A stretch of 64,000 nucleotides of DNA from Candidatus Bathyarchaeota archaeon (lineage in GTDB: Archaea > Thermoproteota > Bathyarchaeia > TCS64), in NCBI GenBank assembly GCA_018652685.1, contig JABIBQ010000066.1:701-64700 (forward strand), written 5' to 3'. The first letter of the stretch is position 1. The number at the start of each line of letters is the position of its first letter. This document shows, piece by piece, positions 9,596 to 56,952 of this stretch. The notes below the pieces were generated by a model that was given only the letters and a program-made list of their open reading frames with translations, did no database searches and was not told the DNA's origin. The translations under genes were made by a program, and so were the position numbers.

Positions 9596-10474
9596 TTGAA
9601 AATCCTAGTCCTCTATGGCTCAAAGCCAAGTAAGAATAGCGTTGAATTAATCGAGGCAGCCCAGAACCAGGGCCACGAAGTGTACAGTGGCCCCACTGGA
9701 GACATCTCAAGTATGATCAGCAACGACGGCAGCAAGTTCTTGCTAGGTAAGAAGGACATATCGGATATTGACCTGTGCCTATTACGGAGTTTCGGGCCTG
9801 GTAGCACAGAGCAGTCAACCCGCCGCATCAGCTTGCTGGAGCACATGGAAGTGGCAGGCATTAAGGTCGTGAATAGCACCTACCCGTTCAGGAGGAGCAG
9901 GGACAAGTACGCAACACAGTACGTGCTCCACGCAGCTGGTATTCCAATCCCTCAGACCTTCACAACAGAGAGCCTGGCGAGGGCATACCAGATCACCAAC
10001 GAGATGGGCAAGACCATCTACAAGCCCATCCTGGGAAGCATGGGAAGGGGCAGTATGAAGTTTGATGACGCTGACCTGGCTTACAACGCCTACAGGCTGC
10101 TTGACAGGCTGCACCACCCATTGATACTGCAGAAATACGTCCAGACTCCTGGCAGGGACATCAGGGTCTTCATCGTGGGCGACGAGTTAGTGGGGGCTGT
10201 CTACAAATATCTTCCGGAGGGCGAATGGAAGAGCAACGTGGCACAGGGAGGCAAGATGGTTGAAGAGGAGATGAGCGACGAGATCATCGAAATGGCTTTC
10301 AAGGCAAATGAGGCAATGGGCTTGGATTACTCGGGCGTAGACATCCTGGAATCATCGGAGGGACCGATAGTCCTTGAGGTGAACGCCTCTCCAGGCTGGC
10401 AGGGGTTAAAGAAGGCAACGGGAAAGGACATCGCAGAGGTAATCGTCAGGTACGGGGTTGAGCAGGTTGAGTGA
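9596..10474 (+). CDS. RimK-family ATP-grasp alpha-L-glutamate ligase (CofF/MptN/LysX-like)
   Basis: 292 aa, TTG start. ATP-grasp blocks KPILGSMGRGSMK, ILQKYV...GRDIRVFIVGDELVGAVYK, and GVDILES..GPIVLEVNASPGW. Confidence 0.8.
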   Translation: MKILVLYGSKPSKNSVELIEAAQNQGHEVYSGPTGDISSMISNDGSKFLLGKKDISDIDLCLLRSFGPGSTEQSTRRISLLEHMEVAGIKVVNSTYPFRRSRDKYATQYVLHAAGIPIPQTFTTESLARAYQITNEMGKTIYKPILGSMGRGSMKFDDADLAYNAYRLLDRLHHPLILQKYVQTPGRDIRVFIVGDELVGAVYKYLPEGEWKSNVAQGGKMVEEEMSDEIIEMAFKANEAMGLDYSGVDILESSEGPIVLEVNASPGWQGLKKATGKDIAEVIVRYGVEQVE

Positions 10475-10841
10475 CGAGCTTTCAAAGATATCAATCAAGA
10501 TCACAGTGATTGACAAGGGAGAGGCCACGGGATACCTGAACAGGTTGACCGCGCCACTGACGGTGGGAGCGATCTCTCAGAGGCTTCCCATCAACAGCAG
10601 GACAAGTCCAGCCATGGGGCACGTATCAATACTGATTGACATCCAGAGGGGAGTGGAGAAACCTGTGACGCAGGTGAAGGCGGGCACCATCGCTTACTGG
10701 CCCAGAAGCGACGCAGTCACCATCTATCCAAAGGACACCAAGACATATGGGCCAGTGAACAAGATAGGCGAGATCGAGGAAAACTTACAGCTTTTCAATA
10801 GGCTCAGAAGCGGTTTAAGGATAATAATAGAGAAAATCTAG
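10458..10841 (+). CDS. Cyclophilin-like (TM1367-type) domain protein
   Basis: 127 aa. AGTIAYWPRSDAVTIYP...GPVNKIGEI resembles the cyclophilin-like PF04126 signature. Overlaps the upstream ligase by 17 nt (TTG start; alternative TTG at 10467). Confidence 0.55.
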   Translation: MSRLSDELSKISIKITVIDKGEATGYLNRLTAPLTVGAISQRLPINSRTSPAMGHVSILIDIQRGVEKPVTQVKAGTIAYWPRSDAVTIYPKDTKTYGPVNKIGEIEENLQLFNRLRSGLRIIIEKI

Positions 10842-11089
10842 GCTTCGCCAACCATCTTGTAGACTTTAAGGTTCGTGCTGCGGATGACAAACTCAACGAC
10901 TCCCTTTGACTCCAGGTCAATGAGCATCCTCTTCGCCACGCTGACTTTAAGATTGAACCTAATCGCTACTGCTGTTGGTGTGATGGCCTTCATTCCTCTG
11001 AGAGCCCCAAGGGTCTCTTTGCTTGTGAGATCGGGGATATCGACACCGCCGACAATTTTCTCTCTACGTCCTGTATTTTGAGTAGACAT
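10838..11089 (-). CDS. rps25e: 30S ribosomal protein eS25
   Basis: 83 aa. Winged-helix core ITPTAVAIRFNLKVSVAKRMLIDLESKGVV typical of S25e. Confidence 0.8.
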   Translation of the reverse strand: MSTQNTGRREKIVGGVDIPDLTSKETLGALRGMKAITPTAVAIRFNLKVSVAKRMLIDLESKGVVEFVIRSTNLKVYKMVGEA

Positions 11090-11135
11090 TATTGTTCACC
11101 CACCAAATCATGGGTGTGAATTAAAAACCCTGCGG

Positions 11136-11837
11136 CTAAAGATACTTTTGTATCTCTTCGACGCTGAGAGACCTGAACTTTTTGGTCTCTTTTGTCACGA
11201 CCGCGATGTTCACCCCATCAGCAGACAGGTCATTATCCGATGCCTCTTTCAAAGCCTGTGCAGATAGGGCAATGGCTTCATCCAACGTGATCTCCAGTCG
11301 ATACTCCTCCTTGAGGACCGCTAACGCCTTATCGCTGTTGCGCCCAACGGATGTGGCCCTGTATCCTCGGTAGCTCCCGCTTGGGTCCGTCGCGATCAGG
11401 CTGACTCTGTGGTCATCAACACCACCAAACAGCAAACTGACGCCGAACGGCCTTACGCCTGCGTTCTGGGTGTATCTTTGGAGTAGGTCGCCAACCGCAC
11501 TGGCTAGGTCTTCGATATCAGCTGGCTCATCGTATGTCATCTTGTTACTCTGACAAAAGAGCCTGGACTGTTTGATCAGCACACGGGCATCCGGGCTGAG
11601 GCCCGCTATCGCCACGCCGACGTGGTCATCGATCCTGAATATCTTCTTGCTACTTGTAGGCGCTGCCAGCTTGCTCAGCTGCGGCTCAAGAACCGCGAGG
11701 ACTACTCCCTCATCACTCTTGATGCCTACTATTGGGCTGCCCCTCTTGACTAGCTCTAGGGCGTACTCGACCTGGTAGATTCTTCCCTCTGGTGAGAAGA
11801 TTGTGATTGCTCCGTCGTATTCTCTTCCGCGTGACAT
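11136..11837 (-). CDS. psmA: Proteasome subunit alpha
   Basis: 233 aa. YDGAITIFSPEGRIYQVEYALE N-terminal signature. Confidence 0.95.
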   Translation of the reverse strand: MSRGREYDGAITIFSPEGRIYQVEYALELVKRGSPIVGIKSDEGVVLAVLEPQLSKLAAPTSSKKIFRIDDHVGVAIAGLSPDARVLIKQSRLFCQSNKMTYDEPADIEDLASAVGDLLQRYTQNAGVRPFGVSLLFGGVDDHRVSLIATDPSGSYRGYRATSVGRNSDKALAVLKEEYRLEITLDEAIALSAQALKEASDNDLSADGVNIAVVTKETKKFRSLSVEEIQKYL

Positions 11838-41429: not shown

Positions 41430-43084
41430 TTGATTACACAACCGTTGAGGTCATCAAGGGTGCCCTCATCTACGCGGCAGAGGAGATGGGCATCTCACTC
41501 AAGAAGTCGGCGTACAGCCCCAACATCAAGGAACGTATGGACCACAGCTGCGCGCTCTTCAGCCACAACAGGGAGCTCATTGCTCAGGCGGAGCACATCC
41601 CGGTACATCTTGGCTCATTGGCGTTGGCGATAAAGCTGGGCCTGGAGGAGTACGAGGGGGAGTTAAACCAAGGGGACATGCTACTTCTCAACGACCCCTA
41701 CATCAGCGGCACCCATCTGCCTGACCTGACGCTCATTGCGCCAGTCTTCCACGATGGGAAGATAATTGGGTACGCGGCCAACAAGGCGCACCACACCGAT
41801 ATCGGGGGGAAGACGCCGGGAAGTCTCGCGCCGGACTCCACCGAGCTGTATCAGGAGGGTTTGGTCATTCCCCCAGTCAAGTTTGTCAGGGGAGGGGTGG
41901 TAGACAAGGAGCTTTCAAAGCTTATCCGGAGCAATGTTAGGACACCGGACGTCCAGATGGGCGATCTCAGGGCCCAGATAGCTGCCAATTACACTGGGAT
42001 TAGGAGGGTGCTTGAGCTTGTGGACCAGTACGGTGTTGAGACACTTCACTCTGCGATGTCCCAGATTATGGACTATAGTGAGCGGCGCATGAGGCAGGAG
42101 ATTTCAGCCATGCCTGATGGCGTCTACGAGGGGTTTGATTATCTGGAAGATATCCCGCGAATGGGGATGGATGTCGAGATAAAGGTCAGTGTGACCAAAA
42201 AAGGGGACTCATTGACGTTCGATTACGTTGGCACCTCTCCGCAGGTGGAGAGCCCAGTCAACGCCCCCCTCGGCGTGACCGTCGCGGGCATCTACTATAC
42301 ACTCATCAGCACAACGGACCCCACAATTCCTGTCAATGACGGCTGCTTCAGGCCCATCACCCTCAATGTCCCGTTGGGATGCATGATGAACCCCAACAGA
42401 CCGGCACCTGTTGCTGGTGGAAACGTTGAGACCAGTCAGAGAAACGTGGACGTCATCATGAGAGCGCTCAGTAAAATGATACCTGACAAGGTGCCAGCTG
42501 CCAGCCAGGGGACCATGAACAACATCACCATAGGAGGGATACTTGACAACGGTGAGCCTTGGACCTTCTACGAGACAATAGGCGGCGGAAACGGCGGTCG
42601 GCCCGTGAGTGACGGCGTTGACGGGATCCACATCAACATGACCAACACCATGAACACGCCCATCGAGACCTTGGAGGCTTACCTGCCGTTCAGGTTCAAG
42701 GCGTACAGGCTCAGGCCCGACAGCGGTGGTCCGGGGGAGTTCAGGGGAGGGTGCGGCATCGAGCGGGTCTGGACTCTCACAAGCGAAAAGGCCACGTTGA
42801 GCATCATGGCGGAACGGAACAAGATCAAGCCCTGGGGGCTAAAAGGGGGCCACGGAGGCACGCTGGGTGAGTTCATCCTCGTCAAGAAGGACGGAACGGA
42901 GACAAAGCTGCCGTCGAAGGTCACGGTCGAGCTCTACAGGGATGACACTCTCATCATCAGGACTCCTGGAGGGGGAGGTTACGGTGACCCGAGGGATAGG
43001 GCTCCTGAGAAGGTGAGGGAGGACGTGATGAACGGGCTTGTAAGTTTGGAGTCAGCCAGAGATATCTATGGTCTGAAAGACTAG
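41426..43084 (+). CDS. hyuB: Hydantoinase/oxoprolinase family B subunit
   Basis: 552 aa. SPNIKERMDHSCALF, NDPYISGTHLPD and GGGGYGDP blocks. ATGA overlap with hyuA. Confidence 0.9.
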   Translation: MIDYTTVEVIKGALIYAAEEMGISLKKSAYSPNIKERMDHSCALFSHNRELIAQAEHIPVHLGSLALAIKLGLEEYEGELNQGDMLLLNDPYISGTHLPDLTLIAPVFHDGKIIGYAANKAHHTDIGGKTPGSLAPDSTELYQEGLVIPPVKFVRGGVVDKELSKLIRSNVRTPDVQMGDLRAQIAANYTGIRRVLELVDQYGVETLHSAMSQIMDYSERRMRQEISAMPDGVYEGFDYLEDIPRMGMDVEIKVSVTKKGDSLTFDYVGTSPQVESPVNAPLGVTVAGIYYTLISTTDPTIPVNDGCFRPITLNVPLGCMMNPNRPAPVAGGNVETSQRNVDVIMRALSKMIPDKVPAASQGTMNNITIGGILDNGEPWTFYETIGGGNGGRPVSDGVDGIHINMTNTMNTPIETLEAYLPFRFKAYRLRPDSGGPGEFRGGCGIERVWTLTSEKATLSIMAERNKIKPWGLKGGHGGTLGEFILVKKDGTETKLPSKVTVELYRDDTLIIRTPGGGGYGDPRDRAPEKVREDVMNGLVSLESARDIYGLKD

Positions 43085-44271
43085 TCGAAGTAGCTTTTCA
43101 TCGCGACCACGATGACGGTACAGACCAGGGTGAAAGCCGCACTGATGTAAAAGACCCAGTCGATGGATGCCACAGTCAGGACTCCGCTCATGACGAACAT
43201 CCCCACTGAGCCGCCCAGGCTCAGGATCATACCCCAGACGCCGGTGGCCGAGCCCCTGTCCTCGACCGGTAGTGCCTCCATTGTGGCTGCCTGGGTAACC
43301 GGGAATACCAGTACGGCGCAGACGCCGAGCACGGCGTTGAGCACGGGGAGCATCCACAACGATGACGCGACGGGGACGAGTGCAAAAGCTACTACGCTTA
43401 CCCCCAGCCCGACCACGATTGGTAGGAATCTTCCAACCTTGTCAGAGAGTTTCCCGACTATGGGCAGGCTGACGGCTATCATGAGGCTGTTTGCCGTTAA
43501 TGTGATCCCGATTATGAACTCGTCATAGCCCCTTCCGGCTCCAAGCATGGGAATGAACGTGAACAGCCCGAAGTGGCAGAAGGCGTGGGCGAAGACCGCG
43601 AAACTTGAGGCGAGGACTTTCCTGTTGGATAGTAGTCGTCTCATGGTAGTGGGGAACTCTTTGATTATCTGCCTGGCCTGTTCCGTGGGATTCATGGGGC
43701 ACGAGTCCCGCCTGTCGTCCTCTGTGTACCTCCACGCGACGAAGAAACCGATGCAGGTAATCACCCCGGAGATCACGAACAATGGCCTGTACCCTGAGAA
43801 CTGACTCGCGATGAATCCGCCCACGATTGGTCCGATGACGCTGCTCACCGCCCAGCTGAGGTGGAACTTGCCCATGGCCTCCCCTGCCTTCTCAGGCGGG
43901 AAAACCTCGCTTGCCAATGCCTCGCTCGGTGGGAAGTAGATGCTGAGTGCCAATCCGCTGGCCATCATCGCGGCGACCGGTATCCAAGGATCCGTCGCAA
44001 CGCTGTACATGAAGGGTACCAGAGCGAACAGGGCCAATCCGAAGAGCATCATATTCTTCTTTCCGAGGCTGTCGCTGATGGTACCCGCTGCGAGCCTGAG
44101 GAATGTCTGGATGATGTTTCTGATATTGTAGATAAGCGTGAGCACAGCGGCACTGACCCCAAGACTGCTTATGAACTGGGGCTGGAAACTCATGGGTATG
44201 GTCTCGCCGAACATGGCGAAGAATGTAGCCATGAATATAGCCCAGAAGATTCGTTGTTGCTTTTTCTCCAA
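43081..44271 (-). CDS. MFS transporter
   Basis: 396 aa, about 12 TM helices. GTISDSLGKKNMM (MFS loop 2-3 motif). Confidence 0.85.
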   Translation of the reverse strand: MEKKQQRIFWAIFMATFFAMFGETIPMSFQPQFISSLGVSAAVLTLIYNIRNIIQTFLRLAAGTISDSLGKKNMMLFGLALFALVPFMYSVATDPWIPVAAMMASGLALSIYFPPSEALASEVFPPEKAGEAMGKFHLSWAVSSVIGPIVGGFIASQFSGYRPLFVISGVITCIGFFVAWRYTEDDRRDSCPMNPTEQARQIIKEFPTTMRRLLSNRKVLASSFAVFAHAFCHFGLFTFIPMLGAGRGYDEFIIGITLTANSLMIAVSLPIVGKLSDKVGRFLPIVVGLGVSVVAFALVPVASSLWMLPVLNAVLGVCAVLVFPVTQAATMEALPVEDRGSATGVWGMILSLGGSVGMFVMSGVLTVASIDWVFYISAAFTLVCTVIVVAMKSYFD

Positions 44272-44367
44272 AGATGCTCACGTGATAGGCATGGGAATAC
44301 TTGTGCTCAATTTAAACCATCCCCAACCCGAACGATTATATTCAGCCTTCCGTGGTTTCTCCATGAT

Positions 44368-44613
44368 ATGTGTCTAGCGGTTCCAGGTCTGGTTGAGAGC
44401 GTTGACGGAAGGATGGCCATCGTTGATTTCGGTGGCGTTAAGCGTGAGGCCATCATTGACCTCATGGAGGAGGGAACCATTGTGCCCGGCGTCTATGTAT
44501 TAGTACACACTGGTTTTGTCATCCAGAGGCTGGAAAAGGAGGAGGCTCTTGAGACTCTGGCGATTTGGCGTGAGGTGCTCACCGCTCTCGATGAGCCTGA
44601 AAAGGTAGTTTAG
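44368..44613 (+). CDS. hypC: HypC/HupF-family hydrogenase maturation chaperone
   Basis: 81 aa from ATG 44368: MCLAVPGLVESVDGRMAIVDFGGVKREAIIDLM...YVLVHTGFVI. Essential N-terminal Cys2 is present. The upstream part of the 250-aa track ORF is antisense to the MFS gene. Confidence 0.8.
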   Translation: MCLAVPGLVESVDGRMAIVDFGGVKREAIIDLMEEGTIVPGVYVLVHTGFVIQRLEKEEALETLAIWREVLTALDEPEKVV

Positions 44614-44653
44614 ATACACCTATATCCGAGGATTCATTTTTTGAATCGATTCT

Positions 44654-45244: not shown

Positions 45245-47470
45245 ATGGGAACCAGAATAAGCAACTACTCATTTGACGATAGGCTGGACAGGTTAAGGAA
45301 GACAAAGGTCAGACATGCTCAGAGGAAGGTAGAACTCCTGGGCCCACGTGATGGCGATGAGCAGGGAAATGTTGCGCTTCCACTTGACCAAGCCATCATC
45401 GTTGATGCGATTAGCGGCTCGGGCGTCCCTGTCAAGGACATGCTACTGAAGGGATACGAGCCTGAGACCAACCACCCCAGCGGCGGCTTCTTCGGAGCGG
45501 GAATTGTTGGCAGGAACTACAGGAAGCTCCTGGAGGTCCACCCCACATACATCGACCCCGACAGCTCAATGGCCGGGGTCTACATGGTGAGCTTTAACAG
45601 CTACAGGAAGCCCGACTGGAAACCGGATTATGATTACAGCCACCTCCACGAGGACCAGGAGCGGTTCGGGATTGATGCAGGGATCGGGGGATTGCAGCAC
45701 TTTTGCCCCGATCTGAAGATCGGTCTTGATCTTGGATGGGGCGGGCTCCTGGACAAGGTGAGGAAGTACAGGGAGATCAACTCGGACACCGAGTTCTATG
45801 ACGGTTTGGAGGATATCATCCTCGGAATGCAGGACTGGATTCGCCGCCATGGGGAGGAAGCAGCCAGAATGGCGGAGGATGAACCATACAGAGAGGTCAA
45901 GGAGAACCTGCTTGCAATCTCAGAGATATGCCTTGCACAGGTCAATGACCCTCCGGTAACGTTCCGCGAGGCATGCCAGTGGCTCACCTTCTTCCAGGCA
46001 GCCGCAAAGATGTACAACGGCAGTGGCGAGTGGGGGCAGCTAGACGAGCTTCTGAGGCCGTTCTACGATAGTGATAGGATGGAGGGAACCCTCACCGATG
46101 ACGAGGCCATATTCCACATCGCGTGCCTCCTTCTGAGCGAGACTGCGTATATCCAGCTGGGAGGACCTGACCGGGACGGGAACGACCTCACAAGTTCTGT
46201 ATCGTACCACGTACTGGAGGCGATTCACAGGCTCAAGACTCCGGCAAACATCGGGGTAAGGGTTGGGCCGAACGTTGATCCGGGATTGCTAAAGCGAGGA
46301 GTTGAAATTCTCCTTGAGGACAGGATGGGTTTCCCCAAGTTCATCGGCGACGAGCAGGTAATTGAGGGTTGGATGAGAAACGGGTACTCAATCGAGGACG
46401 CCCGGACGAGAGTTTACTCGGGGTGCCACTGGCTGGCGATACCCGGCAGGGAGTACGCACTCATGGACATCATCAAGATCGATTTCGCAATGCTCTTCGA
46501 CACCACGTTCTGGGAAATGATTTATGGCGGTGAAGAGAAGTCAGTTGACATCCTCTGGGAAATGTTCAAAGAGAACCTGATGAGGGCTGTTGAGATCACA
46601 GCGGAGGGCATTGACATCCACTTTGAGCACATGTACAAGGTCTTCCCGGAGCTATTCCTAGACTTATTCTGCTACGGTCCGCTTGAGAAAGGGCTTGACG
46701 CATCCAACGGTGGCGTCGAATTCTACCACATTGGAGTTGATGGAGCGTCACTCGCAAACGTGGCAGATTCCTTTGCAGCCATCAGGCAGAGGGTCGAGGA
46801 AGAGAAGAGACTCGGCTGGGATAATATGGCTAACCACCTTAAAAAAAACTGGTCCGGGGCTGACGGGGAGAGGGTCAGGCTGATGATGAAGAACATCCAG
46901 AGATTTGGATCAGGTGGCTCTGATGCAGATGAGTGGGCTGCTAGAATCACCGATGAGTTCACTAGGATTGTTAAGGAAAAGCCAACGCCCGGTGGTTACC
47001 AGATGGTACCCGGGCTGTTCTCATGGGCAAAAGTCGTCCCGTTCGGTAAACGGCTTGGGGCAACTCCAGATGGCAGACGTGCAGGTGATCCATTATCACA
47101 CGGTCCTAACCCATCACCAGGTTTTAACACCGGTAAGGGAGGGTCACCAACCCAGATGGTCACATCAGTTGCGGCCGTCCAACCTGGTTATGGCAACACT
47201 GCCCCACTCCAGATTGATATTGACCCCAGCCTGGGCGATAGCGAGGAGTCCATCGAGAAGGTCGAAGCTCTCATTAGAAGCCATTTCAAGATGGGAGGTA
47301 CGATGGTCAACATCAACGTGATGAACAGGGAGATGCTTGAGGAGGCGCACCGGAACCCGGTGGATCACCCGGATCTTATAGTCAGGGTGACTGGTTTCAG
47401 TGCCTACTTCTCTAGCCTATCGCAAGAGCTCAGGCAATACGTTGTTGACAGAGTAATCAACGGTGACTAG
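45245..47470 (+). CDS. Glycyl radical enzyme, PFL2-like, with a non-canonical Cys loop
   Basis: 741 aa. Glycyl radical motif IVRVTGFSAYF (Gly717, 47393-47395), TPDGRRAGDPLSHGPNPSPG, and Cys loop RVYSGCHWLAIPG (Cys394, 46424-46426). Confidence 0.9.
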   Translation: MGTRISNYSFDDRLDRLRKTKVRHAQRKVELLGPRDGDEQGNVALPLDQAIIVDAISGSGVPVKDMLLKGYEPETNHPSGGFFGAGIVGRNYRKLLEVHPTYIDPDSSMAGVYMVSFNSYRKPDWKPDYDYSHLHEDQERFGIDAGIGGLQHFCPDLKIGLDLGWGGLLDKVRKYREINSDTEFYDGLEDIILGMQDWIRRHGEEAARMAEDEPYREVKENLLAISEICLAQVNDPPVTFREACQWLTFFQAAAKMYNGSGEWGQLDELLRPFYDSDRMEGTLTDDEAIFHIACLLLSETAYIQLGGPDRDGNDLTSSVSYHVLEAIHRLKTPANIGVRVGPNVDPGLLKRGVEILLEDRMGFPKFIGDEQVIEGWMRNGYSIEDARTRVYSGCHWLAIPGREYALMDIIKIDFAMLFDTTFWEMIYGGEEKSVDILWEMFKENLMRAVEITAEGIDIHFEHMYKVFPELFLDLFCYGPLEKGLDASNGGVEFYHIGVDGASLANVADSFAAIRQRVEEEKRLGWDNMANHLKKNWSGADGERVRLMMKNIQRFGSGGSDADEWAARITDEFTRIVKEKPTPGGYQMVPGLFSWAKVVPFGKRLGATPDGRRAGDPLSHGPNPSPGFNTGKGGSPTQMVTSVAAVQPGYGNTAPLQIDIDPSLGDSEESIEKVEALIRSHFKMGGTMVNINVMNREMLEEAHRNPVDHPDLIVRVTGFSAYFSSLSQELRQYVVDRVINGD

Positions 47471-48377
47471 GATGACAACTGGACTTGTATTTGATATCAA
47501 GCATTTCGCGGTACACGACGGCCCCGGCATAAGGACTACGGTTTTCGTCAAGGGATGCCCATTGAGATGCATGTGGTGCCACAACCCGGAGTCACTTACA
47601 TCGGAGCCACAACTCATGTTCACACCATCAAGGTGCATCGGGTGCGGATACTGCATGAAAATTTGCGATCATGGTGCGCATATCACGGTCAATGGAGCAC
47701 ACGAGGTTGACTGGACCAAGTGCGAGGCGTGCGGTAAATGCGCGGCCGAGTGCTACTCTGGTGCCCTTGAGATTGCGGGAAGGGAGGTCAGCGTTGACGA
47801 GGTCATGGAAGCTGTACTGAAGGACAAGGTTTTCTTCGAGAACTCCAAGGGAGGGATGACCATATCAGGAGGGGAGCCGTTGAGCCAACCTGAATTCACG
47901 GTGGAAGTATTCAGGAGGGCAAAGGAGAACGGGATCCACACATCGCTTGATACATCTGGATACGCCGCTTGGAGCGTGATCGAGAAGGTCATCGAGCACG
48001 TTGACCTGGTCCTTTATGATATCAAGCAGATGGACTCGGAGAGGCACAAGGAGTACACGGGTGTGTCGAATGAGCTAATAATCGAGAACCTGAAGAAAAT
48101 CGACACAAAAGACATACCCATCTGGGTCAGGATACCAACTATACCGGGACTCAACGATGATGAGGACAATTTCCGAAAGATCGGGGAACTCTTATCATTG
48201 CTCAAGCATCTGGAGCGGGTTGATATTCTCAGGTACCACAAGCTGGCTGAGTCCAAGTATGAGCACACGGGACAGGACTATAGGCTCAAGGGAATGAACA
48301 CGCCTGAGAAGGACGAGGTAGAGCACCTCAAGGACATTCTCGAAGGGTATGGGTTGTCAAACGTCAGCATAAGCTAG
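47463..48377 (+). CDS. Glycyl-radical enzyme activating enzyme (radical SAM with two auxiliary 4Fe-4S motifs)
   Basis: 304 aa. GCPLRCMWCHNPE (CxxxCxxC), CIGCGYCMKIC, CEACGKCAAEC, and GGMTISGGEP. 8-nt overlap with the GRE gene. Confidence 0.9.
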   Translation: MTRMTTGLVFDIKHFAVHDGPGIRTTVFVKGCPLRCMWCHNPESLTSEPQLMFTPSRCIGCGYCMKICDHGAHITVNGAHEVDWTKCEACGKCAAECYSGALEIAGREVSVDEVMEAVLKDKVFFENSKGGMTISGGEPLSQPEFTVEVFRRAKENGIHTSLDTSGYAAWSVIEKVIEHVDLVLYDIKQMDSERHKEYTGVSNELIIENLKKIDTKDIPIWVRIPTIPGLNDDEDNFRKIGELLSLLKHLERVDILRYHKLAESKYEHTGQDYRLKGMNTPEKDEVEHLKDILEGYGLSNVSIS

Positions 48378-49589: not shown

Positions 49590-50939
49590 CTAGACCAGAG
49601 GACGCTGGAATGCACCGTAGCCGGGTTTTCCGATGACCTGGCCGTCCTCGTAGATCACCTGGCCCCTAACAAGGGTCATTATAGGCATTCCTTTACCCTT
49701 CATGTCCTCGTACGGGGTGATCTTTTGGATGGTCTGCAGGTTCTCGCCCTTGATGTGGAACGGCATGTCCATGTCGGCAATGACGATATCTGCGTCAGCG
49801 CCTAGCATGAGATCGCCCTTCTTCGGGTATAGCCCGTTCATCATGGCGGGGTTGGTGCTGAAGACCTCGACGAGTCTCTCAAGGCCAATCTTGTCGTTGT
49901 TGACCGCGTCAAGCATCAGCGGGAGGCTAGTCTCGATGACAACGCCGCCGCTTGGGGCGTCGTAGATGTTGTCAAAGCCCTTGTCTTTCTCCTCTTTGGT
50001 GTATGGAGCGTGGTCCGATGCTAGCACATCGATTGTTCCATCATTAAGTCCCTCCCACAGACGGAGCTGGTCGTCCTTGGATCTGAGAGGTGGGTCAACC
50101 TTGGCGTATGGGCCCCTCTCGTTCATCGCCTCCTTGGTGAAAACCAGGTAGTTGGTGCTGGTCTCGCCCGTCACTAGCTGGTCGATGCTCTGTGCCCACT
50201 CTAGTATGTCCACTGTTCCACCTGAGCTTATGTGGCAGATGTGAAGGTGGCAATCAGTCTGGGCCGAGAGAGTAATACACCTCATCACTGCCTCGATCTC
50301 GGCGATGTCCGGCCTGAAATCACAGTGGGCCATGGGGTCCGTTCTACCCGATGCCACCGCCTCCTCCATGAACTTGTCAACGAGGTCACCATTCTCGGCG
50401 TGGACTAGCAGCGGCCTGTCTAACTCAGCGAGCAGCTGCATATGCTTGTATAGAGTATAATCGCTTGCCGCCAGCTCCTTGAACCTGGCGATTAGGAAGC
50501 TCTTGAAGGCCGTTGCCCCCGCCTCTGCCAGCTCCTTGATGTTTTTTGGAGGAACCTCGCCCGCCCCACCTATGAAGCCAAAGTCAATTAGGCTCTTGCC
50601 GTCGGCTATAGCTTTCTTCTGGTTGAATGCCTCAAGGGTAACAGTGGCTGGTACAGTGTTTGGCATGTCGATGACGGTGGTAACTCCACCAGCAGCGGCT
50701 GCCCTTGTCCCTGACTCAAAGTCCTCCCTCTCTGGGAAACCTGGGTCCCTAAGATGGACGTGCATGTCTACCATGCCGGGGAGTACCACCTTGCCCATGG
50801 CGTCTATTACCCTGTCCGCCTTGGGCTCGCTTGATTTGAGAATACCTATAATCTTGCCGTCGTCGATCACAAGGGAGCCCTGTGTGATGCCCGATGGAAG
50901 AACCATTAACCCATTCTTTATGACGATATCAACTGTCAA
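49590..50939 (-). CDS. Cyclic amidohydrolase (dihydroorotase/allantoinase/dihydropyrimidinase-hydantoinase family)
   Basis: 449 aa. PGMVDMHVHLRDPG...GGVTTVIDMPNT, AFKSF (carboxylated Lys position), HAENG, HICHISS, and ASDHAP. Confidence 0.85.
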   Translation of the reverse strand: MTVDIVIKNGLMVLPSGITQGSLVIDDGKIIGILKSSEPKADRVIDAMGKVVLPGMVDMHVHLRDPGFPEREDFESGTRAAAAGGVTTVIDMPNTVPATVTLEAFNQKKAIADGKSLIDFGFIGGAGEVPPKNIKELAEAGATAFKSFLIARFKELAASDYTLYKHMQLLAELDRPLLVHAENGDLVDKFMEEAVASGRTDPMAHCDFRPDIAEIEAVMRCITLSAQTDCHLHICHISSGGTVDILEWAQSIDQLVTGETSTNYLVFTKEAMNERGPYAKVDPPLRSKDDQLRLWEGLNDGTIDVLASDHAPYTKEEKDKGFDNIYDAPSGGVVIETSLPLMLDAVNNDKIGLERLVEVFSTNPAMMNGLYPKKGDLMLGADADIVIADMDMPFHIKGENLQTIQKITPYEDMKGKGMPIMTLVRGQVIYEDGQVIGKPGYGAFQRPLV

Positions 50940-51129
50940 AGTGTTGCACGGGAGAGTATGCGGTCTCGCGTGTTTAATTACTTTTCATCAAACTGATGAA
51001 CTCTTGTCCGATGACTCATTAATTGATTTGAGTGGACAGCTAATATTGTATTTCGAACCTTTTTCTAATTATCACAAGGCGCTGGGAAAGTTTTATGTAA
51101 CTTCCGATTCAATCCTTGGGCGTGAGAAA

Positions 51130-52269
51130 ATGAGTCTAAATGACCTATCAGACGACTTCCCGATATGTAACACTCTCAATTACCTGAACGCGGCAAGCAT
51201 TGGTCCAGTCCCCCAATCTGTCATCGATTTTTCAACAAGCTTCTCAGCGGAAATCGCCAGAGGGGGAACAAAGACCCTGAGTGAGGAGAAAGAGGACATG
51301 GTCTATGATGGGCTCAGAGACGAGGGTGGGAAACTTTTCGGCTGCTCACCCGAGGATGTGGCAGTATTCAACAGCGTATCGGAGGCGTTGAACTGCATCG
51401 CTTGGAGCCTTGAGCTGGATAAGGGAAAACTCATTTCAACAAATATTGAGTTTCCGTCGGTCACGTATCCGGCGCTGAGGATGGCCCAGAAGGAGAAAGG
51501 GATCACGACGAAGCTGGTCAGTGCCGTTGACTGGCATGTTCCAGTGGAGGACATCCTTGAAGAGATAGATGAGACTACCAAAGCGGTGTTTATCACACAT
51601 GTTGAGAACCTGACGGGTCAGGTACATGATATCAAGAGGATCTCAGAAAGGGCACACGAGGTCGGCGCAATGGTGATTGTAGACGGTATACAAGCCGCTG
51701 GGTACATACCCCTTGATGTCAAGAAGCTGCAGATTGACGCCTACATCACTGGCAGTTATAAATGGCTGTGTTCCCCGTTCGGGACGGGAATGGCGTACGT
51801 ATCAAAAGAACTGTACGATAAGCTCACCCCGCTGTTTGTCGGGTGGCGTACCGCGGAGGAAATATGGGACTTTGATCCAAATGTCATCAATTACCCCTCC
51901 ACAGCAAGAAAATTTGAGTATAGCACTAGCGCGTACGGCGTCAAGCTGGGGATGGTTGAGTCGATAAAATACCTGCGCAATATCGGGATCGACAAAATAT
52001 ACGAGCACGACATGAAGCTGGATGGGATTCTGAGGGAAGAACTGGGGCAAATCGAAGGTGTTGATATCATCACCATTGACGAGCACGGCCCCATAGTGAC
52101 CTTCAAGATCGAAGGAAGGGACAGCAGAGAGATCAACAACAGATTGAGGAACTTGGAAAGGCCGGTTGAGCTCAGCGTCAGGTTGGGACTGATACGGGTC
52201 TCACCCCACCTCTATAACACCGTGGAGGACATCGCTCAACTCATAGACGGCATACGCCAGGTCGTGTAA
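51130..52269 (+). CDS. Class-V aminotransferase-fold PLP enzyme (cysteine desulfurase/selenocysteine lyase-like)
   Basis: 379 aa from ATG 51130: LNYLNAASIGPVP..., ITHVENLTGQV, VDGIQAAG, and GSYKWLCSPFGTG (PLP Lys). The upstream part of the 596-aa track ORF is antisense to the amidohydrolase. Confidence 0.8.
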   Translation: MSLNDLSDDFPICNTLNYLNAASIGPVPQSVIDFSTSFSAEIARGGTKTLSEEKEDMVYDGLRDEGGKLFGCSPEDVAVFNSVSEALNCIAWSLELDKGKLISTNIEFPSVTYPALRMAQKEKGITTKLVSAVDWHVPVEDILEEIDETTKAVFITHVENLTGQVHDIKRISERAHEVGAMVIVDGIQAAGYIPLDVKKLQIDAYITGSYKWLCSPFGTGMAYVSKELYDKLTPLFVGWRTAEEIWDFDPNVINYPSTARKFEYSTSAYGVKLGMVESIKYLRNIGIDKIYEHDMKLDGILREELGQIEGVDIITIDEHGPIVTFKIEGRDSREINNRLRNLERPVELSVRLGLIRVSPHLYNTVEDIAQLIDGIRQVV

Positions 52270-52372: not shown

Positions 52373-53503
52373 CTACCACGTGATTCTGTAGGGCATCTCG
52401 TTGAGGCAGGTGGCCCCGTTCTCTGTTATCAGGATGATGTCCTCGATGTGGCCGCGGTAATTTGTCTCAGGGTCACGCCGGTTGGGCTCGTAGGTTAGGG
52501 TCATGCCGGGCTTCAATGGCTGGTTGTCAGTTTCAATCGGCCCAAAGCTGGGAGAGTATGGCATGGTATAGTCATGCACGTCAAGCCCTATCTGGTGGCC
52601 GGTGCGAACAGTCTCCTTGAAGCCAAGCTCCCTGTTGAGCTCGTTGGCTATGTCCAGGACATCGTTGCCGGTCATACCGGGCTTGATCCTGTTGATTGCA
52701 TCCACCTGGGCTGTCATGGCCCTCTCCATATAGTTCTCGGTTGATTTCTCCCAGGTCACGTGCCAGTTCCTGCCCATGTCGCTGCAATAGCCATTCCTCA
52801 GCCTGACCCCAACGTCTAGGCTCAAGGCGTCGCCGTGTTTAAGGTGCGGAGTGTTGTTCCCTTTGATGAACCCGATGCTGCTGTCAAAGCTGAACTCGTA
52901 TGCTCCCAGCTCGATCATATTGGAGTCAAGCTCACGTTTCAGGTCCGAGACGCTCTTCCCTGGTGTCGTGTCCTCGATGAGTACGTGGAACGCTGTCTCT
53001 GTGATCTCGATGGCCTTGCAGATCTGTTCGATCTCGTACTCGTCCTTGATGGCCCTCAGCTTGAACACGTGGTCGCTGATGTCCGCCTCCGGCGCGGGGC
53101 TGATGCCCAGCTCGCCGGCTATCCTAAACCACATCTGGGCGGATACAGTTGACAGGTCGAAGCAAATCTTGTCCTTGGGGTATTTTTTCAACGCTTCAAG
53201 GGTGCCCTTGATGTGGTGGCCCTTCTCCTGCTTGACGGCGATTACCTCGTTGAACTCACCTGAGGATCGAACCCTCTCCGCCCCCCAGTGGGGCATCACC
53301 AGGGTGGAATCTCTGTTCGCGTCCAGGACCAGGGTCTGGTGCTCGTCCCCCAGGGCTCCGGGCATCGCGTAGATGGTATTGCTGGGGTTCTGCCTGATTA
53401 CCTCGTTGAAGAAGACCACGGCTTCGTATCCCCTTGCCTGGACTTCCTCCAGGATCGCGTTTCGTCTCTGTTGGAGTGACTGCTTCGCGTTCATAAATAT
53501 CAT
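52373..53503 (-). CDS. M24-family metallopeptidase (Xaa-Pro peptidase / creatinase / ectoine hydrolase-like)
   Basis: 376 aa. Creatinase_N-like N-terminus. Metal ligands are retained in GDALSLDVGVRLRNGYCSDMGRNW, GHQIGLDVHD, LTYEPN and HIEDIILIT. Confidence 0.85.
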   Translation of the reverse strand: MIFMNAKQSLQQRRNAILEEVQARGYEAVVFFNEVIRQNPSNTIYAMPGALGDEHQTLVLDANRDSTLVMPHWGAERVRSSGEFNEVIAVKQEKGHHIKGTLEALKKYPKDKICFDLSTVSAQMWFRIAGELGISPAPEADISDHVFKLRAIKDEYEIEQICKAIEITETAFHVLIEDTTPGKSVSDLKRELDSNMIELGAYEFSFDSSIGFIKGNNTPHLKHGDALSLDVGVRLRNGYCSDMGRNWHVTWEKSTENYMERAMTAQVDAINRIKPGMTGNDVLDIANELNRELGFKETVRTGHQIGLDVHDYTMPYSPSFGPIETDNQPLKPGMTLTYEPNRRDPETNYRGHIEDIILITENGATCLNEMPYRITW

Positions 53504-55155: not shown

Positions 55156-56952
55156 CTAGACCCTCTTCACGATTCTACCGGGTGTAGCGCCCGTGTGCGT
55201 GCCTTTCTCAACTACGACCACGCCGTTCACGAAGACATACTCGATTCCATTGGGGTGCTGGCTTGGCTCGACAGGTGTACCAACCACCTCAAGCTTGTCG
55301 TAGTCGAACACCGTGATGTCGGCATAGCTGCCCGGCGTGATTGTGCCCAATCCCTCCAGGTTGTGGTGCTCGGCCGCGGCGGTGCTGATCTTATAGATGG
55401 CCTCCTCCAGGGTGAAGATCTTACTATCCTTGACCATCTGGTTGATAAAGCCGGGGAAGGCGCCGAATGCGTTTCTTCCTGGCCTCCTGTATGGTGGCCT
55501 CTCCATCTTGTAGTCAGCGTCGAAGACGGCCTGGTCCAGGCTCAGACTACCAGCCTTGTGCTGGAACATGAGCGCCCTATATGGCTTCCACGGGAAGTTA
55601 CCGGTGTCCGCTGTCCCCGCGGCATAGCCCATGGCGTCAGGGTCCTCGCAGATGAGGTCGAACCATGTGTGAATCTTGTCCGAGTCCCTTTCTGCAGCAA
55701 TCATTGCCAGGTTCTTGCCTACTAGACTTGAGTCCTTGTGGCCGCTGATCCAGATGTTCTCGGCCCACTGGGGGTTCGTGTTGGGGTTGTAGGCCAGTCT
55801 GATGTACCACTTGCCGTTCTTGAGTGCGTCAATGATCTCCTCGCGGTAATCCGCCACCTTGAGCCACTCCGCGAACTTTTCCCTGCTGCCGCACTCTTTG
55901 AGCCACGGGTTAAGGATGCTGCTGAGGTAGGGCATGACGTCGAAGCCTGCTCTTAGGAACCATGGCATGCTGTCAAAGGTGAGTACCATGCCCTCGGCGA
56001 TGGCCTCATCGAAGTACTTGAGGGTTGCACGTATGTTGTGCTCCTCCAAGTAGTCGTTGCCCTCGGGGGTGAGTCTCCAGCCGGGTGTCAGGTGCGCGAT
56101 GTTTGTCGGAACTCCCGTTACTCTGCATGTGTTGATGGACTCTAACAGCCCGTCAACCTTATTGCTCCTCGTGTCGCCGAACTTAACCTGCCTACGCCTC
56201 CCCGTCCTCCTCCAGTGGGGCGCGTAGACCGCGTTGGGGTAGTCCTTGAGAACGGATACGCATTCGTTGATCTCGTCCATATGCGCCTGAACGCCCGGGT
56301 CATAGTCCAGCCCGCTGCTGAGACCGACGGCTCCCTCGTCAAGTGCCTGCTTGATGAGGACCTTCATCTCAGCCAGCTCGTCGCAGGTGCTGTGGCGTTT
56401 GTAGTCGTTGCCCATGACATTGTACCTGATTGTGCCCTGACCCACTAGGGGTACGGCGTTCATCGAGACGCCGACCTCCTCGACTTTTTTGAACCAGCCT
56501 CCCAGGGTATCCCAGTCGATGGTCCAGTCGAAGTACTTGTCCATGATCTCGTTGACCTGCTCTTTGGGGAACAGGCTCTTCTTTGGGTAGTACTTGTGGG
56601 GCTCAAGGTCGTCTATGTACTGGGCGGATATACCTGGCAAGTTCATCCAATCGCCGTATGGGCCCACGCTTCCGCCGCACTGGCCGCCAACGAAGCTGGT
56701 GACCCCCTGCATAATGTAACTCTCCGCTTTGGGGAAGAACAGCAGGGTTGTGTCGCCGTGGCTGTGGGCGTCGATCCAACCGGGGCTCGCGAAGAGCCCT
56801 TTGGCATCAACAATTTTCACAGCGTCTCCCTTGACATCGCCCAGAGCGGCGATCTTGTCACCCTTGACGCCTATTGATCCCTTGTACGCTTTCTTGCCAC
56901 TTCCGTCAATGATTTGAGCGTCCTTGATTATCACGTCGTATTCTTCAGACAT
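55156..56952 (-). CDS. N-acyl-D-amino-acid deacylase (D-aminoacylase) family amidohydrolase
   Basis: 598 aa. YDVIIKDAQIIDGSG...SPGWIDAHSHGD N-terminal signature and a C-terminal beta-sandwich return (ITPGSYADITVFD). Confidence 0.85.
   Translation of the reverse strand: MSEEYDVIIKDAQIIDGSGKKAYKGSIGVKGDKIAALGDVKGDAVKIVDAKGLFASPGWIDAHSHGDTTLLFFPKAESYIMQGVTSFVGGQCGGSVGPYGDWMNLPGISAQYIDDLEPHKYYPKKSLFPKEQVNEIMDKYFDWTIDWDTLGGWFKKVEEVGVSMNAVPLVGQGTIRYNVMGNDYKRHSTCDELAEMKVLIKQALDEGAVGLSSGLDYDPGVQAHMDEINECVSVLKDYPNAVYAPHWRRTGRRRQVKFGDTRSNKVDGLLESINTCRVTGVPTNIAHLTPGWRLTPEGNDYLEEHNIRATLKYFDEAIAEGMVLTFDSMPWFLRAGFDVMPYLSSILNPWLKECGSREKFAEWLKVADYREEIIDALKNGKWYIRLAYNPNTNPQWAENIWISGHKDSSLVGKNLAMIAAERDSDKIHTWFDLICEDPDAMGYAAGTADTGNFPWKPYRALMFQHKAGSLSLDQAVFDADYKMERPPYRRPGRNAFGAFPGFINQMVKDSKIFTLEEAIYKISTAAAEHHNLEGLGTITPGSYADITVFDYDKLEVVGTPVEPSQHPNGIEYVFVNGVVVVEKGTHTGATPGRIVKRV

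Follow-up and report, generated by a model that had tools for sequence, protein, structure and literature searches.

A glycyl radical enzyme of a Bathyarchaeia genome with a tryptophan at the loop glutamate position: a clade of unassigned activity with a possible carbohydrate-derived substrate

Glycyl radical enzymes (GREs) fall into seven classes according to a June 2026 review (PMC13450708), in which the CXE motif of the cysteine loop is retained by all C-O, C-N and C-S eliminases and by all three isomerases, phenylacetate decarboxylase carries Gln484 two residues after Cys482, whole GRE clades are unvalidated, no archaeal pyruvate formate-lyase (PFL)-like GRE has a known function and a tryptophan loop is not mentioned. 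The closest described systems to the enzyme treated here are PflD and YbiW (8yjo, 8id0 and 8id7), known sugar isomerases for 1,5-anhydromannitol-6-phosphate and 1,5-anhydroglucitol-6-phosphate; the B12-independent glycerol and propanediol dehydratases, HypD, CutC, IslA and HpsG are 1,2-eliminases of common fold, and PFL2 of Archaeoglobus fulgidus (2f3o), whose function is debated, is the only structurally studied archaeal PFL-like GRE. The enzyme in question is encoded next to its activating enzyme in a 64,000-nucleotide stretch from a Candidatus Bathyarchaeota archaeon (assembly GCA_018652685.1, contig JABIBQ010000066.1, forward-strand positions 701 to 64,700), referred to below as the window. 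Its cysteine loop reads GCHW, with Trp396 at the position of the CXE glutamate, and it belongs to a clade, denoted C-x-W, in which this tryptophan is found throughout.

The window almost certainly encodes a functional GRE together with its activase (coordinates in Table 1). The GRE is matched by the Pfam families PFL-like (PF02901, 2.3e-83) and Gly_radical (PF01228, 1.1e-16), the blocks FCYGPLEKGLDASNGG and TPDGRRAGDPLS begin at residues 475 and 607, respectively, and Cys394 is placed 323 residues before Gly717. Among its six cysteines (154, 229, 244, 294, 394 and 476) Cys394 is the only one to match the catalytic position of PflD, HypD and glycerol dehydratase in the HMMER alignments; in the MAFFT alignment it matches that of E. 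coli PflD, YbiW and PflB as well, and it is invariant among the homologues and clade members compared. The glycine itself is present, and the replacement of the radical glycine by Ala, Ser or Thr that is typical of aminoacyl radical enzymes (AAREs) was not found. The identity as a GRE is beyond chance because, among the best 120 of the 2,051 proteins returned by a word-indexed homologue search at E <= 1e-20 (61-89% identity over the full length, about 743 aa), the GCHW loop is kept in all 120 and RVTGFS in 119. The activase belongs to the Radical_SAM, Fer4_12 and Fer4 families and scores 363 bits against the curated GRE-activase model TIGR02494 (cut-off 174); its CX3CX2C motif comprises C32, C36 and C39, and the two four-cysteine motifs lie at C58-C68 and C87-C97. 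A preliminary description of this DNA had proposed a 741-aa GRE with Gly717, Cys394, the GCHW loop and the 323-residue spacing, and a dedicated activase overlapping it by 8 nt and carrying two extra ferredoxin-like clusters. All the residue numbers were verified by script, the open reading frames (ORFs), Pfam, TIGR02494 and the cysteine motifs agree on the activase, and an alternative thiyl cysteine with a canonical loop, which the same description named as fatal to the proposal, was absent from the HMMER and MAFFT alignments.

None of the NCBIfam GRE models reaches its cut-off with the GRE protein. The best match is TIGR01774 (PFL2-3; 257 bits, cut-off 678), followed by the PflD equivalog (248, cut-off 1109), HypD (214, cut-off 1100), CutC (163, cut-off 1050) and PFL (TIGR01255; 83.8, cut-off 994), and over the 1,2-eliminase equivalogs the scores amount to 100-260 bits against cut-offs of 1000-1150. 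Likewise, no NCBIfam GRE cut-off was passed by any of 10 representatives of the other C-x-W sub-clades. No GCHW orthologue with an assigned activity was found in NCBIfam, the PDB or the literature searched, in agreement with the preliminary description, which had given the enzyme no substrate and had named such an orthologue as fatal to its finding.

The homologues carry no source annotation beyond 'formate acetyltransferase' or 'pyruvate formate lyase family', and these names, together with the PFL-like residues N622 and W246, are what speaks for a pyruvate or 2-ketoacid formate-lyase. Such an activity is highly improbable: the Cys-Cys pair is absent, G393-C394 being aligned with that of PflB (MAFFT), the match to PFL spans the C-terminal 190 residues only, the TIGR01255 score lies far under its cut-off (see above), and the pyruvate-binding residues Arg176 and Arg435 of PFL correspond to His152 and Lys411 in the window GRE. 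In PFL these two arginines bind the keto-acid carboxylate. Hardly any credence can be given to a hydrocarbon-activating enzyme of the X-succinate synthase type either, the 'pflD/assA-like' reading of Bathyarchaeota and Asgard genes. A hydrophobic residue at Cys+2 would suit a reaction without acid/base catalysis, metagenomic studies name archaeal GREs as candidate hydrocarbon activators, one metagenome paper describes such archaeal GREs as difficult to distinguish from pflD and assA, and the Archaeoglobus enzyme is subject to the same debate (PMC13450708). However, the matches to MasD (5.8e-28) and TutD (1.2e-23) are far weaker than that to PflD (4.6e-65), small Cys-rich ORFs of the accessory-subunit type flank neither the GRE and activase genes nor appear in the gene maps of the orthologue loci, no beta-oxidation or benzylsuccinate pathway gene is found among the annotated neighbours, and the context of the orthologues is one of carbohydrates (see below). 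Both the formate-lyase and the X-succinate synthase readings fail on the defining features of those enzymes.

The closest records of the GCHW family (89-94% identity) are from Bathyarchaeia, which makes a bathyarchaeal origin of the window almost certain, and its homologue records are metagenome-assembled genomes throughout, from uncultured organisms only. According to the source names and a species-genome scan, the archaeal carriers are Bathyarchaeia and Promethearchaeota, and the bacterial ones, from at least 8 phyla overall, include Armatimonadota, Poribacteria, Anaerolineae, Chloroflexota, Dehalococcoidia, Verrucomicrobiota, Kiritimatiellae, Lentisphaeria, Brocadiia, Planctomycetota and Rhodothermales. 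An archaeal-type GRE (69-70% identity to the window protein) with an activase and a DHDPS-family gene was also seen at loci L032 and L035 of DATLAV01, labelled Patescibacteria; this copy is probably a mis-binned contig, otherwise a recent transfer. Beyond the family, an exhaustive search of representatives revealed relatives at 30-52% identity with loops GC(H/N/Q/F/Y/G/P)W, and canonical GCVE loops only among more remote GREs. In a neighbour-joining (NJ) tree of 104 full-length GREs (the window protein and 5 others of its family, 95 representatives and, from E. coli, PflD, YbiW and PflB) a single split, with 100/100 bootstraps, sets the 29 C-x-W sequences apart from all the CXE-type GREs sampled. 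The GCHW core family is supported by 89/100 bootstraps, and the CHW sequences within the clade are not monophyletic (0/100). The profile search and phylogeny that the preliminary description had proposed as a check thus place the enzyme below all GRE cut-offs and in a deep, monophyletic and fully supported C-x-W clade, which is very probably distinct and uncharacterised.

A closer inspection of the alignment columns (counted as clade-specific if kept by >= 85% of the clade sequences and by <= 25% of the remaining GREs sampled) showed W396 in every clade sequence (100%) and in none of the other GREs (0%), where Glu takes the position in 77%. E469 comes next (100% and 1%; Val493 in PflD), followed by D408 (100% and 19%), E403 and Y404 (93% both, with 20% and 23% elsewhere) and N622 (90% and 4%, the other GREs having mostly Ser); W165, L474, P654 and T716 also pass these thresholds. 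R714, V715, G717 and F722 are conserved in >= 85% of both groups. The change that defines the clade is therefore the tryptophan at Cys+2, alongside a new invariant glutamate elsewhere. His395, Cys154, Glu262 and Trp263 are confined to the GCHW family, and because the residue at Cys+1 varies among the sister lineages (H/N/Q/F/Y/G/P), the histidine at this position is at most a family-specific trait. The unusual loop singled out in the preliminary description is accordingly clade-wide as regards its tryptophan and variable as regards its histidine, and the division of the established classes into CC or GCVE loops on which it relied proved too simple, given the glutamine at Cys+2 of phenylacetate decarboxylase. 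His395 was considered as a replacement base and set aside, as it is not conserved in the clade and the CHW sequences are not monophyletic; it remains a family-specific candidate only. Cys154, two residues past His152, was likewise discarded as a clade-wide second active-site cysteine, since it is invariant in the family but S/T/L/V/G/A in the sister clades. A member of the sister GCNW clade in the representative library (P0123, 1052 aa) carries a complete activase fused to a C-x-W GRE, with Radical_SAM and Fer4 domains at 1-230, PFL-like at 435-887 and Gly_radical at 906-1010; a merged gene call is an equally possible explanation.

An AlphaFold2 model of the GRE, built from a 75-sequence family alignment, has a mean predicted local distance difference test (pLDDT) score of 89 and a predicted template modelling (pTM) score of 0.91, and displays the strands, the Cys hairpin and the Gly hairpin typical of GREs. 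A Foldseek comparison with the PDB gave template modelling (TM) scores of 0.72-0.82 to 50 solved GRE chains, consistent with the ten-stranded alpha/beta barrel. PflD (8yjo) is both the best fold match (TM 0.81, 24% identity) and the best sequence match (4.6e-65), and the next fold matches are the propanediol and glycerol dehydratases, HypD, CutC, the A. fulgidus enzyme and others, at 18-24% identity. With PflD and YbiW the window enzyme has in common the barrel, the Gly loop, the Cys position, His152 (PflD H156), Asp408 (PflD D433), an adjacent activase, a carbohydrate context and, in the sister clades, a downstream aldolase logic. It differs from them in that the CXE glutamate (PflD E421 in gene numbering, Glu433 in 8id0) is a tryptophan, there is no phosphotransferase system (PTS) context, the N-terminal 150 residues are divergent and the protein, at 741 aa, falls short of E. 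coli PflD (765 aa) and YbiW (810 aa) by 24-69 residues. The 1,2-eliminases (TM 0.75-0.81) resemble it in the ferredoxin clusters of the activase and in the His and Asp at the H164 and D447 positions, but they keep CXE where the window clade has C-x-W, and no microcompartment accompanies the window GRE. Phenylacetate decarboxylase shares with it the absence of the Cys+2 glutamate, whereas the affinity is at superfamily level only, the substrates are arylacetates and the genomic context is another one. The A. fulgidus PFL2, compared by overall match only, has the same fold (TM 0.78; 8.2e-45, 22% identity) and is not among the closest sequence or fold matches.

The residues of the pocket were mapped by sequence alignment alone. 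His152 corresponds to His164 of glycerol dehydratase, His156 of PflD and Arg176 of PFL (Arg177 if the initiator Met is counted), Asp408 to Asp447 of glycerol dehydratase and Asp433 of PflD, Lys411 to Arg435 of PFL and Trp594 to Ile606 of PFL, and Ser260 and Glu262 lie on a barrel strand aligned with Ser282 and Ser284 of glycerol dehydratase. The His-Trp that follows Cys394 occupies the Val-Glu position of PflD, HypD and glycerol dehydratase (HMMER). In glycerol dehydratase His164 and Asp447 take part in the handling of the leaving group and the neighbouring hydroxyl in the manner of eliminases; their counterparts His152 and Asp408 are invariant, and the predicted pocket residues are all invariant between the archaeal and bacterial members. 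The alignment thus predicts a pocket in which the His/Asp pair of the eliminases is kept, two tryptophans are gained and the loop glutamate is lost. As His152 and Asp408 are retained, the enzyme may carry out a modified form of C-O cleavage rather than something wholly foreign. This qualifies the statement of the preliminary description that neither of the known mechanisms is obviously available, since the loop glutamate is lost but much of the eliminase scaffold is kept.

The neighbourhoods of the orthologues provided the lead to the substrate. A total of 80 orthologue loci, gathered from contig look-ups, a species-genome scan and a metagenome scan, were reduced to 61 non-redundant ones and their flanking ORFs were clustered; the downstream counts rest on the 46 non-redundant loci with >= 1.5 kb of 3' sequence. 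The activase lies directly 3' of the GRE in 22 of the 46. Among these are the archaeal-type loci with downstream sequence, 11 in number and at >= 67% identity to the window, all of which contain GRE-activase only. Twenty of the 46 have Gfo/Idh/MocA genes within 3.5 kb on the same strand, and the bacterial loci (57-66% identity to the window) typically read GRE-(activase)-GfoA-GfoB, a division in step with phylogeny. The GfoA orthogroup (366 aa, 18 loci, median identity 66%) always follows the GRE or the activase directly on the same strand, and GfoB (375 aa, 11 loci) is always 3' of GfoA. Over its full length GfoA is related to the C-glycoside 3-oxidoreductase DgpA (7xr9, 3.5e-59), and GfoB is remote from all solved members of the family. 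The GfoA/GfoB pair (L039:12257-14497, L040:12210-14490 and 16 more loci) represents an uncharacterised, co-inherited oxidoreductase module in at least 5 bacterial phyla.

Further recurrent or adjacent genes at the orthologue loci encode sugar transporters (sugar ATP-binding cassette (ABC) and Sugar_tr), glycan-breakdown enzymes (GH29, GH95, GH127, GH123, GH51, a heparinase-like lyase and sulfatases), sugar-processing enzymes (AP_endonuc_2, which is xylose-isomerase-like, 3-keto-disaccharide hydrolase, DeoC and DHDPS-type aldolases, ILVD/EDD, and glyoxalase-fold and URO-D-like proteins). A major facilitator superfamily (MFS) transporter of the nucleoside:H+ symporter family (Nuc_H_symport) is found directly 5' of the GRE in 5 loci. 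A nucleoside substrate, considered on account of this symporter and of DeoC in one locus, was neither supported nor excluded and is subsumed under the carbohydrate-derived ones. Among the sister lineages, a GCNW enzyme lies in an operon ribose-type ABC transporter-activase-GRE-ROK, a GCFW enzyme in an operon SIS-CUT1 ABC transporter-URO-D-activase-GRE-URO-D, and a second GCFW gene 4 nt after a class II aldolase; a GCHW enzyme at 43% identity has a divergent XylR-like regulator alongside. URO-D-like genes recur beside C-x-W GREs of several sub-clades (L050:4047-5210, L041:5956-7002, L083:5397-6557 and 9904-11160, and the P0121 contig), at L083 on both sides of the GRE; one such neighbour has no sequence relative in the PDB, the context on the P0121 contig consists of its URO-D neighbour only, and that on the P0125 contig is uninformative.

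The bacterial operons resemble the DgpA/DgpBC system in that GfoA is a full-length DgpA relative and AP_endonuc_2 and 3-keto-disaccharide hydrolase genes recur nearby. They differ from it in the component that breaks the bond, a metal-dependent TIM-barrel lyase in that system, in place of which the operon of the bacterial orthologues holds a radical enzyme. No pairing of a DgpA-type with a radical enzyme was found in the literature searched, nor was anything tying a GRE to DgpA, to Gfo/Idh/MocA enzymes or to the carrier lineages covered (Bathyarchaeia, Kiritimatiellota, Armatimonadota and Poribacteria). With moderate confidence, the DgpA-like sugar oxidoreductase pair of the bacteria acts immediately before or after the GRE. 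The survey of orthologue neighbourhoods, another check put forward in the preliminary description, thus yielded the GRE-(activase)-GfoA-GfoB arrangement, and the window neighbours, which that account had regarded as uninformative, are so in the window itself, the carbohydrate lead coming from the bacterial orthologues.

The substrate is fairly likely to be carbohydrate-derived, because of the Gfo orthogroups, the recurrent glycan genes and the sugar operons of the sister sub-clades. Both by sequence and by fold, the solved enzymes nearest to the window GRE are sugar-phosphate isomerases of the PflD type, and this too speaks for the proposal that follows. Because of the established GRE mechanism and the conserved motifs, the activase, with one radical S-adenosylmethionine (radical-SAM) [4Fe-4S] and two auxiliary clusters, would cleave S-adenosylmethionine and take a hydrogen from Gly717, and the glycyl radical would give rise to a thiyl radical at Cys394 that would abstract a hydrogen from the substrate. 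This would be a small molecule such as a free sugar, a glycoside, or an anhydro-, deoxy- or keto-sugar, for whose ring Trp396, and probably Trp594 too, may provide an aromatic platform in place of the Cys+2 glutamate. The substrate radical would then undergo scission of the beta C-O bond, in the eliminase/isomerase manner of PflD and YbiW, via His152 and Asp408. The role of the missing loop glutamate may be taken by a carboxylate from elsewhere, either the clade-invariant Glu469 or the family-specific Glu262, and the product would be a keto- or deoxy-sugar, in bacteria handled next by the two co-inherited Gfo/Idh/MocA oxidoreductases, one of them DgpA-like. As a whole, this chain, with the carbohydrate substrate and the C-O scission type included, is a tentative proposal whose prospects are nearly balanced and lean slightly towards its being wrong. 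The sugar stacking by Trp396 and Trp594, the eliminase roles of His152 and Asp408 and the replacement of the loop glutamate by Glu469 or Glu262 are put forward with low confidence.

Several observations weigh against this proposal. Homologues of GfoA, GfoB, AP_endonuc_2, DHDPS or the NucH-type transporter were not detected in the window (tblastn), and neither the window nor the other archaeal-type loci contain a conserved sugar gene beside the pair; the carbohydrate assignment of the window enzyme is carried over from its bacterial orthologues (57-66% identity). The genomes of the Planctomycetota-Verrucomicrobiota-Chlamydiota (PVC) group, Armatimonadota and Chloroflexota are rich in Gfo/Idh/MocA genes and glycoside hydrolases, and the looser neighbourhood signal could be in part background, the same-strand orthogroup pattern being its strong part. 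The loss of the Cys+2 glutamate speaks against a straightforward eliminase mechanism. Glu469 sits in a segment of lower confidence in the model (pLDDT 63-77), and its reach into the active site, as that of Glu262, is a candidate role.

The main rival proposal keeps the carbohydrate-derived substrate but replaces C-O elimination or isomerization by a radical reaction that needs no base at Cys+2. For example, the DgpA-like partner might make a 3-keto-glycoside that the enzyme then splits at a C-C bond, a sugar acid might be decarboxylated, or an epimerization might take place. The change of Glu to Trp across the entire C-x-W clade would be in line with this, as would phenylacetate decarboxylase, likewise devoid of the Cys+2 glutamate (Gln484), the URO-D-like genes (decarboxylase or methyltransferase fold) that recur by clade members, and N622 and K411, which are PFL-like rather than eliminase-like. 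The DgpA-like partner would yield 3-keto-sugars, and in the DgpA/DgpBC system the C-C or C-O cleavage of these normally requires a separate lyase. Nevertheless, His152 and Asp408 of the eliminases are kept, eliminases and isomerases are the nearest enzymes by sequence and fold, the second loop cysteine of the PFL type is absent and Cys154 is not kept in the sister clades, and a reaction of this kind is rather unlikely. It is possible, though doubtful, that the C-x-W clade runs a reaction type new to GREs, the radical transformation of a neutral sugar or glycoside; together with this, the substrate would possibly be a 3-keto-glycoside from the DgpA-like partner, or the reaction a redox-neutral deoxygenation of a free aldose, and the aromatic Cys loop and the relocated carboxylate would be used.

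As the preliminary description had stated, the genes near the pair in the window are those for HypC, an inorganic pyrophosphatase (ppa), an alpha/beta hydrolase and an amidohydrolase, confirmed here by annotation, and the annotated stretch from 37.8 to 57 kb showed no microcompartment genes. The mechanical ORF at 43861-44613 is over-extended, the true hypC gene being 44368-44613. Further out are genes for hydantoinase A/B, Lrp/AsnC, DsrE-like proteins, a class V aminotransferase, an M24 peptidase, a DHH protein and a second amidohydrolase. Between 37878 and 43084 lie three small DsrE/DsrF/DsrH-like proteins, the Lrp/AsnC regulator and the hydantoinase A/B pair (oxoprolinase/acetone-carboxylase family), followed by a divergent MFS transporter (43081-44271), and synteny of this cluster is seen in close Bathyarchaeia relatives only. 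Downstream of the pair, the 596-aa ORF at 50479-52269 is over-extended as well, since only from residue 235 on does it encode the class V aminotransferase domain, its 5' part being antisense to the amidohydrolase gene at 49590-50939; the M24 peptidase gene (52373-53503) and a 598-aa amidohydrolase gene (55156-56952), D-aminoacylase-like by eye and assigned by Pfam to Amidohydro_1/3 only, are on the minus strand. The region is thus rich in amide-hydrolysing enzymes (the hydantoinase, a 449-aa cyclic amidohydrolase, the 598-aa amidohydrolase and the M24 peptidase).

In this setting the archaeal enzyme might act on a non-carbohydrate compound derived from amino acids or N-heterocycles, for instance a hydantoin, dihydropyrimidine, creatinine or proline derivative. 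The hydantoinase A/B, two amidohydrolases, M24 peptidase and Lrp regulator all within 10 kb in the window would fit with it, several characterized GREs use hydroxyprolines, and an amidohydrolase follows the activase at locus L001 while an M24 peptidase, a creatininase and a CN_hydrolase occur at L002. However, where the archaeal copy is more distant, its amidohydrolase, MFS and M24 neighbours are no orthologues of the window genes (partial alignments at 22-30% identity), and synteny with the hydantoinase, MFS, hydrolase and amidohydrolase genes is restricted to close relatives at 79-89% identity. The recurrence of amide hydrolases is probably a coincidence because the genes of the different loci are not orthologous, and on the same grounds the amidohydrolase, hydantoinase and M24 genes were rejected as functional partners in archaea. 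The invariance of the pocket between archaea and bacteria argues for one common substrate, and the GRE appears to possess a promoter of its own. Such a non-carbohydrate substrate is improbable, and the carbohydrate-derived one is retained as the preferred assignment.

The evidence for the promoter is a TATA-like CC(C)TATAT(T/C) motif placed about 33 nt 5' of the start codons of both ppa (44619-44627) and the GRE gene, which suggests separate, near-leaderless archaeal promoters for the two. With this common motif, the GRE and its activase probably form an independent two-gene transcription unit.

Table 1. Positions in the window of the GRE and activase genes and of their sequence features
Feature	Position	Strand	Basis or remark
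GRE, C-x-W clade, GCHW family	45245..47470	+	ORF of 741 aa, Pfam, AlphaFold2, Foldseek, homologues
GRE-activating radical-SAM enzyme	47463..48377	+	304 aa, GTG start, 8-nt overlap with the GRE gene
Cys loop SGCHWLAIPG, residues 392-401 (Cys394, His395, Trp396)	46418..46447	+	HMMER and MAFFT alignments
Glycyl radical motif RVTGFSAYF, residues 714-722 (Gly717)	47384..47410	+	Script check
Glu469 codon, motif F-P-E-L, clade-invariant carboxylate, candidate relocated acid/base	46649..46651	+	Column conservation
His152 codon, first barrel strand region	45698..45700	+	Alignment; invariant in the GCHW family
Activase cluster-binding cysteines, CX3CX2C and two auxiliary 4-Cys motifs	47556..47753	+	Script check
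TATA-like motif CCCTATATT, about 33 nt 5' of the GRE start codon	45208..45216	+	Direct sequence reading

GREs are a major source of new anaerobic chemistry, and every clade that gained an assignment has brought a pathway to light, as with choline's conversion into trimethylamine (TMA), hydroxyproline, isethionate and anhydroglycolysis. From the archaea, the window adds a clean representative to a large, highly conserved two-domain clade in which the hallmark catalytic glutamate is replaced throughout, and the four-gene bacterial module (GRE, activase, the DgpA-like GfoA and GfoB) makes the question of this unassigned clade experimentally tractable. The carriers are dominant uncultured lineages of sediments and sponges (Bathyarchaeia, Asgard archaea, Anaerolineae, Armatimonadota, PVC bacteria and Poribacteria), and a new sugar-degrading radical reaction in them, if true, would bear on anoxic carbon cycling. 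Should the clade indeed run a reaction type new to GREs, a role could be assigned, for the first time, to an archaeal PFL-like GRE, the window enzyme, and the reaction would represent an unrecognized anaerobic route for glycan-derived carbon in sediments.

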